Shown here: piece by piece, positions 6,485-10,078 of the stretch
Layout: the number at the start of each line of letters is the position of its first letter
Position numbering within the stretch: position 1 is the stretch's first letter
NCBI GenBank assembly: GCA_963677105.1
Contig: OY781871.1
Coordinates: forward strand, 360,001-392,000
Source of the DNA: Candidatus Saccharimonadota bacterium
GTDB taxonomy: Bacteria; Patescibacteriota; Gracilibacteria; UBA4473
Length of the DNA: 32,000 nucleotides
Direction of reading: 5' to 3'
Made by a program: the position numbers and the translations under genes
The notes under the pieces: generated by a model
The model's input: the letters and a program-made list of their open reading frames with translations, nothing else
What the model was told of the DNA's origin: nothing
The model's database searches: none

Positions 6485-6745
6485 TTAGTGAATCGTTTCT
6501 TCTCCCTGTTGAACATTTTTCGATGCTAATTCGTCAGAATACATATGCTGCAATAATCTTGGACTATCTCCCAAAACTTCCCATACTTTTTTTTCAATTT
6601 CGGTGATCATTCCTGGAAACTCACTTTTTGCTGCTTGAACACACGGAAATAACTTGTGTGGAGAAGTAACTCCATTTGCACCTGCAAATTCATTTAAATC
6701 TTTTTCTAATTGAACGAGTGCTTTTTCTCCTTCTGGATTTGCCAT
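6485..6745 (-). CDS. Hypothetical protein (86 aa), upstream of and co-oriented with pyrF
   Basis: ATG-initiated ORF 41 nt upstream of pyrF. No motif recognised. Confidence 0.45.
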   Translation of the reverse strand: MANPEGEKALVQLEKDLNEFAGANGVTSPHKLFPCVQAAKSEFPGMITEIEKKVWEVLGDSPRLLQHMYSDELASKNVQQGEETIH

Positions 6746-6826: not shown

Positions 6827-6854
6827 TTGACAATACAACACTGAACAATACAAT
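6827..6854 (+). promoter_or_regulatory. Sigma70-type promoter (TTGACA-16-TACAAT) in front of the tRNA-Leu 5' fragment
   Basis: TTGACA 6827-6832, 16-nt spacer, TACAAT 6849-6854. The predicted start lies about 5 nt before the tRNA-like fragment at 6867. Confidence 0.6.
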
Positions 6855-6866
6855 TCTTTCGCTCTT

Positions 6867-6916
6867 GCACGAGTGGCGAAGAGTAGACCTGCCTGCCGGC
6901 AGGCAGGCGCGCTTAG
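6867..6916 (+). pseudogene. Degenerate duplicate of the 5' half of tRNA-Leu (acceptor 5' strand, D-arm, start of anticodon stem), interrupted by a 20-bp palindrome
   Basis: GCACGAGTGGCGAAGAGTAGAC[20-bp palindrome]CGCGCTTAG compares with the intact tRNA GCACGAGTGGCGAAACGGTAGACGCGCTAGC at 7194-7224. The conserved D-loop GG is lost and there is no 3' half. Confidence 0.75.
6888..6907. repeat. Perfect 20-bp GC-rich palindrome CCTGCCTGCCGGCAGGCAGG
   Basis: Exact self-complementarity. Inserted between GTAGA and CGC of the tRNA-like fragment. Strikingly GC-rich for this AT-rich spacer. Confidence 0.9.
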
Positions 6917-6955
6917 ATTTTTGACAATTCAAAGCAGATATTTAACATTTTAGAG

Positions 6956-7228
6956 ATGTTCTATGTGTATGTCTTAAAGAGTAAAAATCGAAATTATATT
7001 TATGTTGGTTTAACTTCCAATATTGAGCGGCGTGTAAATCAACACAATTCGTTGAAAGAAAAAACTACTCGATCATATGCACCCTTTACATTAATTCATT
7101 CTGAAACTTTTAAAACTCGTCCAGAAGCTCGTAAAAGAGAAATATTCTTCAAATCTGGATGTGGAAAAGAATGGATAAAGAAACAATTTATCAGCACGAG
7201 TGGCGAAACGGTAGACGCGCTAGCTTGA
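6956..7228 (+). CDS. GIY-YIG (URI-domain) nuclease family protein, YhbQ/COG2827-like
   Basis: MFYVYVLKS..NYIYVGLTSNIERRVNQHN...K.RPEARKREIFFKSG matches the GIY-x10-YVG, R, and E signature of small stand-alone GIY-YIG proteins. The last 11 codons and the TGA stop lie inside tRNA-Leu. The stop covers loop position 33 and anticodon positions 34-35. Confidence 0.8.
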   Translation: MFYVYVLKSKNRNYIYVGLTSNIERRVNQHNSLKEKTTRSYAPFTLIHSETFKTRPEARKREIFFKSGCGKEWIKKQFISTSGETVDALA

Positions 7229-7282
7229 GGGGCTAGTGGGAAATTTATTCCCGTGGAGGTTCAAATCCTCTCTCGTGCACCA
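7194..7282 (+). tRNA. tRNA-Leu(GAG), type II with long variable arm and encoded CCA
   Basis: Manual cloverleaf: GCACGAG/CTCGTGC acceptor; anticodon arm CTAGC-TTGAGGG-GCTAG; variable arm TGGGAAATTTATTCCCGT; T-arm GGAGG-TTCAAAT-CCTCT; discriminator A then CCA. Collinear with E. coli tRNA-Leu. Confidence 0.9.
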
Positions 7283-7298
7283 TATGAGAAAAACAACT

Positions 7299-7331
7299 TC
7301 TTATAATCTGTCGATTATGAGATATTTTTTG
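7299..7331 (+). terminator. Rho-independent terminator after tRNA-Leu
   Basis: TCTTATAATC-tgtc-GATTATGAGA (10 bp, one G-U), followed by TATTTTTT. Confidence 0.6.
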
Positions 7332-7402
7332 TTTTCTAAAAGAAGTATTTACTTTTTCATGTTTTATGTTATAGTGAATTTGTGATTATCTAATTTTTAT
7401 AC

Positions 7403-7612
7403 ATGTCACTTATTGAAGAATATGGACTTAGTGATGATTATCCAGAAGGATCAGATATTCCAAGGGCTGTAGAACTAATTAAAGAATTAGAAGAAAATGG
7501 CTATTTAATAAGAGCTACTACTCTAGCAACAAATATTCAACTCCTAATAAAAGAAAAGCCACCCGCCATTCATAAAAGAGTTGATGAAATTATAAAGGCG
7601 GCATTATCTTAA
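7403..7612 (+). CDS. Hypothetical protein (69 aa)
   Basis: ATG ORF with acidic/helical composition. No motif recognised. Confidence 0.4.
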   Translation: MSLIEEYGLSDDYPEGSDIPRAVELIKELEENGYLIRATTLATNIQLLIKEKPPAIHKRVDEIIKAALS

Positions 7613-8353: not shown

Positions 8354-10078
8354 TTATTGTAATTTTTTTAACAGTGATGCGAGAGACATATTCATATCTT
8401 TTTTTTCTCCATATTTTCGAACAGTGAGTTCACCTGATTTTAATTCTTCATCACCAATTATTGCTGCAAATGGTATTTTTCGTGTCTGAGCCAATCGAAT
8501 ACGTTTTCCAAGTGTTTCTCTTGGATCGAGTAATTCAACGAAAACACCTTCTGATTCAAGTTCTTTCTGAACCTCTTCCGCTCGCTTCATATGCGCATCA
8601 GTTACCGGCAATAATGAAATTTGAATTGGTGCAACCCACGCTGGTAAAGCTCCAGCTGTGTGCTCAATAAGAATTCCGATAAATCGCTCAATTGATCCAA
8701 AAATTACACGATGCAACATCACTGGTCGATGTTTTTCTCCATCCGCACCAACATAAGTAAGATCAAATCGTTCTGGCATTGCAAAATCAAGTTGAACGGT
8801 TCCACATTGCCATGTTCGCCCAATCGCATCTTTTAAGTGAAAATCCAATTTTGGTCCATAAAATGCTCCATCACCTGGATTAATTTTAAATTCTAATCCT
8901 GATTTTTGAATCACTTTTTCCAAAATAGATTCTGCTTTCTCCCACATAGAATCTTCTCCAATCGCTTTTTCAGGTTTTGTAGAAAGTTCGACATGAAAAT
9001 CGAATCCAAATTTAGAATAAAACTCTTTTGCGAGCTGAATTACATTTTTCAATTCTGTTTCTACTTGATCAATCGTACAGAAAATATGTGCATCATCTTG
9101 TGTAAACGCTCGCACACGAAACAATCCGTGTAATGTTCCTGATAACTCGTGTCGATGAACTAATCCTAATTCAGCTAAACGCAATGGTAAATCTCGATAT
9201 GAATGCAATCCATTTTTATAAATAAGCATTCCTCCCGGACAATTCATTGGTTTTACTGCAAATCCTTTTTCATCAATTTCGGTAAAATACATATTTTCTT
9301 TGTAGTTCGCATAATGTCCTGATTGATGCCACAAATCTTCGCTCAACATCATCGGTGTTTTCACATATTTGTATCCATATTCATCATGTTTTTCGTGCCA
9401 ATATTTCAATAATCGATTCATAACTGTCATTCCATTTGGATGCCAAAAGGGAAATCCTGGACCTTCATCATGAAAGGAAAATAAATCGAGTTCTTGTCCT
9501 AATTTTCGATGATCACGTTTTGCTGCTTCTTCAAGCACCATTAGATATTCATCCAGTTTTTCTTGGGTTGAGAAGGCAACTCCATAAATACGCGTTAACG
9601 ATGGTTTGTTTGCATCTCCACGCCAATACGCTCCTGCAATTTTCATAATTTTAAACGCTCCTAATTGTCCGGTAGATTCCAAATGTGGTCCCGCACAAAT
9701 ATCTCTATAAACAACTCTTCCAGATTCATCTTCAAAATCGTATGCAGAAATTTGTTCCCCACGTTTCACTATTCCTTCAATTAACTCTAATTTGAACGGA
9801 TCATCTGCCCAGATTTTCAAGGATTCTGCTTCAGAAAATTCTTTCCGAACAATTTTAAAATCTTTATTAATAATCCAACGCATTTTCTTCTCAATCGCCT
9901 TAAAATCATTTTCTCCGAGTGGATTTTCACCAAAATCAAAATCTTGATAAAACATATCTTCCGTCCATGGACCAACTCCAAGTTTAATCTCTTTACTCAT
10001 CATTTTGACTGCATATGTCATAATGTGTGAACCGGTATGTCGTCGCATCACTTCGAGATCGAGTTTTTTTTCGTTCAT
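8354..10078 (-). CDS. thrS: Threonine--tRNA ligase lacking the N-terminal TGS domain
   Basis: 574 aa. The editing/SAD HxxxH is already at residues 14-18 (RHTGSHIMTYAV). Class II core motifs are present (FRVRAFTQDDAHIF, GAFYGPKLDF) with a C-terminal anticodon-binding domain. Confidence 0.93.
   Translation of the reverse strand: MNEKKLDLEVMRRHTGSHIMTYAVKMMSKEIKLGVGPWTEDMFYQDFDFGENPLGENDFKAIEKKMRWIINKDFKIVRKEFSEAESLKIWADDPFKLELIEGIVKRGEQISAYDFEDESGRVVYRDICAGPHLESTGQLGAFKIMKIAGAYWRGDANKPSLTRIYGVAFSTQEKLDEYLMVLEEAAKRDHRKLGQELDLFSFHDEGPGFPFWHPNGMTVMNRLLKYWHEKHDEYGYKYVKTPMMLSEDLWHQSGHYANYKENMYFTEIDEKGFAVKPMNCPGGMLIYKNGLHSYRDLPLRLAELGLVHRHELSGTLHGLFRVRAFTQDDAHIFCTIDQVETELKNVIQLAKEFYSKFGFDFHVELSTKPEKAIGEDSMWEKAESILEKVIQKSGLEFKINPGDGAFYGPKLDFHLKDAIGRTWQCGTVQLDFAMPERFDLTYVGADGEKHRPVMLHRVIFGSIERFIGILIEHTAGALPAWVAPIQISLLPVTDAHMKRAEEVQKELESEGVFVELLDPRETLGKRIRLAQTRKIPFAAIIGDEELKSGELTVRKYGEKKDMNMSLASLLKKLQ

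Follow-up and report, generated by a model that had tools for sequence, protein, structure and literature searches.

How can a nuclease gene lie partly inside a transfer RNA (tRNA) gene that has remained intact, and where does a second, damaged copy of the start of that tRNA gene come from? The question was raised by a locus in a 32,000-nucleotide (nt) stretch of DNA from a Candidatus Saccharimonadota bacterium (assembly GCA_963677105.1, contig OY781871.1, positions 360,001 to 392,000), hereafter referred to as the window. The window genome, that of an ultra-small bacterium, is a single contig of 962 kb with 36% GC and reads normally with translation table 11. An earlier note on this DNA, made from its letters, had described an open reading frame (ORF) for a GIY-YIG nuclease that ends inside the gene for tRNA-Leu(GAG). 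Genes for tRNAs are usually viewed as landing pads for integrase-bearing islands. The locus is interpreted here, with moderate confidence, as a 327-bp homing-type mobile cassette inside tRNA-Leu(GAG), similar to the mobile ORFs (mORFs) of fungal mitochondria and accompanied by a cognate hairpin as in the Ssn nucleases; its mechanism was inferred.

The damaged copy is a displaced piece of the tRNA gene upstream of the nuclease ORF, here called the stub. A 14-nt exact repeat, GCACGAGTGGCGAA, occurs in the whole window genome only at 6867, where the stub begins, and at 7194, where the intact tRNA begins, and the repeat period of the cassette is 327 bp. The stub holds nt 1-22 of the tRNA, the palindrome CCTGCCTGCCGGCAGGCAGG and nt 23-33 of the tRNA, in this order. 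With the palindrome left out, 27-29 nt of the stub aligned with tRNA-Leu(GAG) at a local score of 40. This exceeded all 19,986 random windows of the window genome, which reached a maximum of 37, and the next-best tRNA match of the stub, which scored 21. The GG of the D-loop is reduced to one G. The decayed tRNA-Leu 5′ fragment described in the earlier note was thereby recovered in a formal alignment. Homology between stub and tRNA stops at the anticodon loop, the position at which the ORF stops in the intact copy. The intact gene at 7194-7282 was accepted as tRNA-Leu(GAG) by ARAGORN and by Rfam (tRNA family, 53.3 bits versus a gathering score of 29), as had been proposed, and is the sole GAG isoacceptor of the window genome.

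Close relatives carry the gene in its empty state. In G001 and G002, two genomes of the same genus with a threonyl-tRNA synthetase (ThrRS) 88-89% identical to that of the window genome, tRNA-Leu(GAG) is present without stub, palindrome or ORF. Promoter homology to these empty sites was judged by pairwise alignments. The 70 nt 5′ of the stub aligned with the tRNA promoter of G001 and G002 (AAAATTTGACAA...TACAAT...CGCTCTT), and the 70 nt 5′ of the intact tRNA showed no homology to it. The downstream flank is common to G002 at 88%. Together, the empty sites and the promoter homology upstream of the stub show that the gene originally began at the stub. Insertion moved the native promoter and the first ~33 nt of the native tRNA upstream, where they are now decaying, and the copy of nt 1-33 on the cassette side forms, with the native nt 34-89, a rebuilt working tRNA gene. 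By sequence comparison, it is supported that the cassette brought the tRNA 5′ part now in use and displaced the native promoter.

The arrangement recurs in other genomes. G004, which belongs to another genus, shares this layout at its tRNA-Leu(GAG) gene, where two tandem 322-bp units are identical at 322 of 322 positions, and G291 has one cassette unit at the same tRNA gene. The empty sites, the promoter homology, the conserved downstream flank and this recurrence all agree with the proposal in the earlier note that a cassette had integrated in the tRNA gene with a replacement 5′ half and that the old promoter now stands ahead of a remnant.

Further irregularities were observed at the cassette-free loci. 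In G002 (minus strand, L007 1410-1440), a duplicate of the tRNA-Leu(GAG) 3′ end (ATCCTCTCTCGTGCACCAC) lies ~120 nt downstream of the tRNA, which suggests a different past event at the same tRNA gene. In G001 (minus strand, L008 840-910), the tRNA is inverted relative to the flanking genes for pyrF and a 202-aa protein. An extra TTTGACATACAAAA, similar to TTTGACAATTCAAAG of the cassette, is located there between the native promoter and the tRNA and may be the remnant of a lost cassette.

Table 1. Features of the cassette locus in the window
Feature	Position	Strand	Basis
Native tRNA-Leu promoter, TTGACA-16-TACAAT	6827-6854	+	Promoter scan, 11/12 positions; now ahead of the stub; homologous to the tRNA promoter of G001 and G002
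Displaced native tRNA 5′ stub, part 1 (tRNA nt 1-22, D-loop decayed)	6867-6887	+	14-nt exact repeat and GTAGA
Perfect 20-nt palindrome CCTGCCTGCCGGCAGGCAGG	6888-6907	no strand	Clean insertion between stub tRNA nt 22 and 23
Stub, part 2, CGCGCTTAGATT (tRNA nt 23-33, one extra T)	6908-6919	+	Sequence reading and alignment
Cassette-borne promoter-like site, TTGACA-16-TAACAT	6921-6948	+	Promoter scan, 10/12 positions; 7 nt before ATG
GIY-YIG nuclease ORF, 90 aa	6956-7228	+	Pfam PF01541, 6.8e-17
Intact tRNA-Leu(GAG)	7194-7282	+	ARAGORN and Rfam; nt 1-33 cassette-side copy, nt 34-89 native remainder
AU-rich hairpin and U-run, probable intrinsic terminator	7299-7333	+	RNA fold, z = -3.24; region conserved in G002

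The ORF encodes a genuine member of the GIY-YIG family, as stated in the earlier note. It matched the Pfam model over residues 1-67 with 62 bits, compared with a cut-off of 22.6. The conserved nuclease domain comprises residues 1-79, and the last 11 residues and the stop codon are read from tRNA sequence. The overlap between ORF and tRNA is 35 nt, and the TGA at 7226-7228 coincides with U33-G34-A35 of the tRNA, in line with the earlier description of a stop on loop position 33 and anticodon positions 34-35. Among 72 homologues, Y5, Y16, G18 and E62 were invariant and R26 and H30 were at least 90% conserved. The catalytic residues were likewise conserved in 14 close homologues. An AlphaFold2 (AF2) model with a predicted local distance difference test (pLDDT) value of 89.5 showed a confident GIY-YIG fold for residues 1-80 with the elements E-E-H-E-H-H. 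The tRNA-coded tail, residues 83-90, had a pLDDT below 50 and was predicted to be disordered. Foldseek matched the model to BH0048, Slx1, I-TevI and UvrC-N, and the profile matches in the PDB were BH0048 (6e-15) and SLX1 (5e-8). The nearest structures were the UPF0213 protein BH0048 and the nuclease domain of Slx1, with I-TevI further off. No separate DNA-binding domain of the kind present in I-TevI and the Seg proteins was found, the conserved 79 residues being the nuclease domain alone, and no NCBIfam model was specific to this nuclease. The protein consists of a minimal SLX1/UPF0213-like domain and lacks the multidomain build of Seg enzymes.

Nuclease ORFs had a ratio of nonsynonymous to synonymous substitution rates (dN/dS) of 0.06-0.2 with saturated dS, and the gene is under purifying selection. 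In close relatives the ORF extends 22 nt into the tRNA, ends on its first base or stops short of it. Since the relatives stop elsewhere and the tail is disordered, the stop in the anticodon loop is incidental, a read-through accident and not a conserved device. Sister families within the class read TGA as glycine. In these lineages, conserved glycines of the nuclease (YVG, KSG-G) are written TGA (L068, L075, L076 and L083; f11 and others), which is consistent with genetic code 25 and indicates that the gene is translated and resident there.

The cassette also appears to carry its own means of expression. Its promoter-like site has the same hexamers and spacing before the ORF in the cassettes of G004 and G291, and in all three genomes it is positioned 6-7 nt before the ATG. 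Such a short distance points to a transcript that lacks a leader and extends into the tRNA, and the promoter scan gave no further plus-strand site between 6921-6948 and the tRNA. Co-transcription of ORF and tRNA is therefore likely as judged from the DNA, and with a promoter-like site in the cassette it need not depend on the old promoter. Neither this site (6921-6948) nor the palindrome (6888-6907) had been mentioned in the text of the earlier note. In the proposed mechanism, the cassette promoter would yield one transcript for ORF and tRNA, probably leaderless. Excision of the tRNA would strip the last 33 nt of the ORF together with its stop codon. Each transcript could then become either a tRNA or a full-length message, which would hold nuclease levels low. 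Downstream of the tRNA, the terminator assumed earlier was recovered by RNA folding as a 10-bp AU-rich hairpin at 7299-7322 followed by AUAUUUUUUG (z = -3.2); the consensus terminator scan of the locus gave no match. Small flanking ORFs of 86 aa (6485-6745, minus strand) and 69 aa (7403-7612, plus strand) were also present in the window. The 86-aa ORF, between pyrF and the tRNA, is seemingly missing in G002.

Homologues of the nuclease were widespread, and most of the best ones were associated with tRNA genes. Among the 30 best homologues from a survey covering 400 genomes of the class, 27 were located directly beside a tRNA on the same strand. The closest ones (at least 49% identity) were all beside tRNA-Leu isoacceptors and the more distant ones beside tRNA Pro, Trp, Gly, Gln and Met. 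Across phyla, at least 451 relatives were detected, with hosts in Patescibacteria, Omnitrophota, Bacteroidota, Ignavibacteriota, Gammaproteobacteria, Planctomycetota and Verrucomicrobiota. Cultured carriers among the Bacteroidota were Zunongwangia, Namhaeicola and Algoriphagus, and the closest named relative for the cassette was a metagenome-assembled genome of Candidatus Gracilibacteria. Among the best 80 of the at least 451 relatives, 48 had a same-strand tRNA within 150 nt and 30 carried the same 18-mer. The nuclease was 76%, 71% and 72% identical to those of G004, G291 and G065, compared with 54%, 51% and 49% for ThrRS. The higher conservation of the nuclease between hosts indicates horizontal spread.

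Two layouts were found. In the first, 5′ stub, palindrome, ORF and tRNA follow each other as in the window genome; in the second, the order is tRNA, ORF and 3′ stub, with the palindrome in the T-arm. The displaced 5′ or 3′ tRNA pieces carry the hairpin, and at some loci the duplicated segment takes in 26-40 nt of promoter. The clade of the nuclease, the type of hairpin and the tRNA isotype are associated. The nuclease clade of tRNA-Pro (support 99/96) has a different hairpin, GGTCGCCTNAGGCGACC, and further clades have others. Other GC-rich hairpin families were seen in tRNA stubs and elsewhere (L081, L084, L087 and L091; contexts L032, L038, L060 and L062). A TCCCGATG(A/G)(C/A)CATCGGGA hairpin replaces T-arms, and a GTCCGCCTCGGCGGAC hairpin was likewise observed.

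The palindrome and this family-wide pattern are the more remarkable part of the locus, ahead of the placement of the stop codon. The palindrome is an insertion of exactly 20 nt without target duplication, found in stubs at D-loop, anticodon-arm and T-loop positions. It is located 48 nt before the ATG in the window genome and stands beside most close nuclease homologues. The exact 20-mer was present in 75 of 401 genomes of the class and the reversed control in none. Among the 19 genomes that have a close nuclease homologue, 17 contained it, versus 58 of the 382 others; these figures are no more than indicative, because related genomes are not independent. It is identical at 20 of 20 positions although the synonymous sites of the adjacent ORF are saturated, and it reaches up to 18 copies per genome versus one to nine nuclease genes. 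It was also present in other phyla and in 35 viral-contig stretches. Of the 36 palindrome sites that were sampled, 12-13 were at tRNA genes, about ten times the chance expectation. As a terminator the palindrome was ruled out, the U-run being 11 nt away in the window genome and absent in G004.

Several individual sites were recorded. In G145:C4 (L041 1489-1670), a 5′ stub of tRNA-Val(TAC) comprising nt 1-43, its D-stem holding the palindrome, precedes a 29-nt spacer and an intact tRNA-Val, with no nuclease ORF; it may be the footprint of a cassette or a palindrome-only event. In G013:C62 (L030 1192-2028), the core of the palindrome is read in frame as LPAGRQ in an uninterrupted 278-aa rsmA/ksgA-like ORF, directly before the IANIPYNIT motif. 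In G314:C46:524-625 (L068/L173), the T-loop of an otherwise intact tRNA-Leu(GAG) is broken by the palindrome. ARAGORN predicted this gene only with the 20-mer removed, and no second GAG copy was found in the 94%-complete assembly. On the viral contigs L200 (~2240-2330) and L177 (~8590-8660), the palindrome occupies the variable-loop position of tRNA-Met. ARAGORN still called these genes, as though the hairpin passed for a long variable arm.

The palindrome may serve as a recognition site, mark immunity or constitute a micro-element of its own that is mobilised in trans. In a broader reading, which we put forward tentatively, the palindrome and the 79-aa nuclease would constitute a new class of mobile DNA that occurs across bacterial phyla and in some viruses. 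No smaller mobile element than this palindrome would be known. It would be written cleanly, without target duplication, into the hairpin tips of single-stranded DNA such as tRNA genes, terminators and even reading frames, and the nuclease gene would ride in tRNA genes by means of a spare tRNA part. As one possible route, both 3′ ends at a break would receive the same decamer.

Less likely is an explanation in which the palindrome alone is the primary mobile unit, inserting at the tips of DNA hairpins, of which tRNA genes would be the best, and the GIY-YIG enzyme is a mobiliser in trans, as the REP-associated tyrosine transposase (RAYT) is for repetitive extragenic palindromes (REP). The duplicated tRNA parts and the placement of the nuclease gene would in that case result from breaks induced by the palindrome and from their repair, not from homing. 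Exact 20-nt insertions without target duplication, at variable-loop positions as well as in the D-loop, anticodon-arm and T-loop, fit this explanation, as do the identity of the 20-mer in 75 of 401 genomes next to saturated synonymous sites, its excess of copies over nuclease genes and its enrichment at tRNA genes. The same holds for solitary palindromes in the rsmA-like reading frame, in terminator-like hairpins and at 41 of 42 sites on viral contigs. Against it, the window genome has a single palindrome, and we know of no strand-transfer chemistry for a hydrolytic GIY-YIG enzyme. Nor does it explain by itself why, in dozens of lineages, the ORF is placed between a stub and a rebuilt tRNA in matching orientation.

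The homing of the cassette is envisaged as follows. The nuclease would cut either the tRNA gene or its cognate hairpin, or the DNA adjoining them, and the substrate would probably be single-stranded or extruded, as for the small Ssn nucleases. During repair of the break through the highly conserved tRNA sequence, tRNA-Leu genes without a cassette would acquire a copy of it. Free-standing homing endonuclease genes with a replacement gene end, among them the mORFs, follow this scheme. The direct repeats could also recombine with each other, which would delete the cassette cleanly or stack it in tandem.

Several observations weigh against the homing cassette, and a few further tests had a negative or mixed outcome. 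The cleavage by the nuclease, its target site and the transfer event are inferred, and nuclease and palindrome are connected by correlation only. Any target within the tRNA would be retained in the rebuilt gene, which leaves self-immunity unexplained. A donor signature was sought in the 5′ part of the rebuilt tRNA and none was found; this part is identical to that of the cassette-free G002 and thus carries no such signature. A test of whether the stub segment behind the palindrome is cassette-borne or local gave a mixed result, and the palindrome may either mark the junction or be a later insertion. The window genome has one cassette and one palindrome. About 40% of the cross-phylum homologues, among the best 80 of the at least 451, have no tRNA within 150 nt, and the palindrome also occurs away from nuclease genes, in coding sequences, on viral contigs and in the tRNA-Val stub without an ORF. 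Enrichment figures are overstated to the extent that related genomes are not independent. The nuclease was found at only one of the 42 palindrome sites on viral contigs, which does not establish phages as the vector of the cassette, and a search of phage proteins for the nuclease gave one weak match. Two exact-pattern scans of metagenome contigs, for the predicted junction of a precise excision and for a stub of the window type, gave no match.

A host function of the Ssn type is more doubtful still. The nuclease would cut single-stranded DNA (ssDNA) at the hairpin and modulate transformation, recombination or incoming DNA. Its gene would be parked beside a tRNA for strong constitutive transcription, with the stubs as scars of local rearrangement. 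The SsnA-like size and single-domain build and the hairpins flanking the gene point in this direction, although the Ssn paper never mentions tRNA (PMC11893778). Strong purifying selection on the nuclease and its long residence in the lineages with TGA as glycine also favour a host function. On the other hand, presence of the cassette varies within a genus, identical tandem copies occur, the nuclease is less diverged between hosts than ThrRS, and the clades are specific to tRNA isotypes with stubs always present. Taken together, these features give the appearance of a mobile parasite.

Integration at tRNA genes is classical, and in some bacteria group I introns reside in tRNA-Leu. A non-mobile origin, by an old local duplication of the tRNA 5′ part with a chance ORF, or a remnant of an integrase island or group I intron, is nevertheless effectively refuted by the bona fide conserved GIY-YIG gene and by the recurrence of the architecture in many phyla. 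An island of the tyrosine-integrase type was rejected because there is no integrase, the 327-bp insert holds one 90-aa ORF and the repeat is the 5′ part of the tRNA, not the 3′ part. A group I intron in tRNA-Leu was rejected since Rfam found the uninterrupted tRNA alone, with no intron or other RNA family at E values up to 10.

As a homing cassette, the locus would represent a 0.3-kb unit inside a tRNA gene that repairs its host gene with its own spare part. This would be a minimal solution for a selfish element that targets essential and universally conserved DNA. If its target is the palindrome or tRNA-shaped DNA, the nuclease would rank as a very small enzyme with specificity for sequence or structure, and might find practical use as has been proposed for Ssn. 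For genome annotation, the cassette accounts for tRNA pseudo-fragments, for ORFs annotated as 'GIY-YIG family protein' that enter tRNAs and for LPAGRQ inserts of six residues in proteins. The existence of cultured carriers makes the mechanism testable.

The literature search found no paper with the 20-mer, the 18-mer or LPAGRQ, and none that combines GIY-YIG nucleases with tRNA fragments and palindromes or describes the cassette. Among known systems, the mORFs of fungal mitochondria were compared first. They are known from atp6 of Allomyces macrogynus and from atp6, atp9, cox2 and nad3 of Glomus, and they bring a substitute for one end of the gene while the native end persists next to them as a displaced duplicate, the hybrid gene being still expressed (PMC3630166). 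The cassette shares with them a free-standing endonuclease ORF inside a gene (a GIY-YIG one in atp9), the replacement end and horizontal spread (PMC3630166). Filled and empty alleles in close relatives together with a displaced native end, the marks of an mORF, were both found for the cassette. It differs in its hosts, which are bacterial tRNA genes instead of protein-coding genes. In addition, the cassette of the window replaces the 5′ end, its 79-aa nuclease has no extra domain, and a palindrome splits the displaced piece.

The Ssn nucleases (cd10448) provide the parallel for the hairpin. SsnA, with 94 aa, is a GIY-YIG enzyme that cuts ssDNA beside a cognate hairpin flanking its own gene (Chenal et al. 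2025, PMC11893778). Common to both systems are a single-domain GIY-YIG protein of ~90 aa (79-90 aa for the window protein) and different hairpins for different nuclease clades. The conserved hairpin that flanks an Ssn gene is also dispersed in the genome (PMC11893778); the palindrome may be its counterpart, with one copy in the window genome and up to 18 in others. In contrast, the palindrome CCTGCCTGCCGGCAGGCAGG is unlike the NTS/SRM motif CGTCATTCCCGCGMAVGCGGGAATCYRG, and the best PDB relatives of the window nuclease are UPF0213 proteins. Embedding in a tRNA gene with tRNA stubs is a further difference, the word tRNA having zero mentions in PMC11893778.

SegB of the phages T4 and T6 is a looser analogue of the cassette than the mORFs or Ssn. 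It too is encoded by a GIY-YIG gene among tRNA genes, and it is preferentially inherited through a break and co-conversion of the tRNA DNA on its flanks (PMC2330249). However, Seg proteins and I-TevI have ~200 aa or more with DNA-binding domains, and by profile and fold the window protein is closer to UPF0213/SLX1 than to I-TevI. Seg genes also lie between genes and create neither a tRNA stub nor a palindrome. Finally, the REP elements, the related bacterial interspersed mosaic elements (BIME) and their RAYT share with the cassette a short, conserved and dispersed palindrome that flanks the gene of its cognate enzyme. RAYT is an HUH/Y1 transposase, whereas the window enzyme is a GIY-YIG hydrolase and its palindrome measures 20 nt and is placed inside structured genes.

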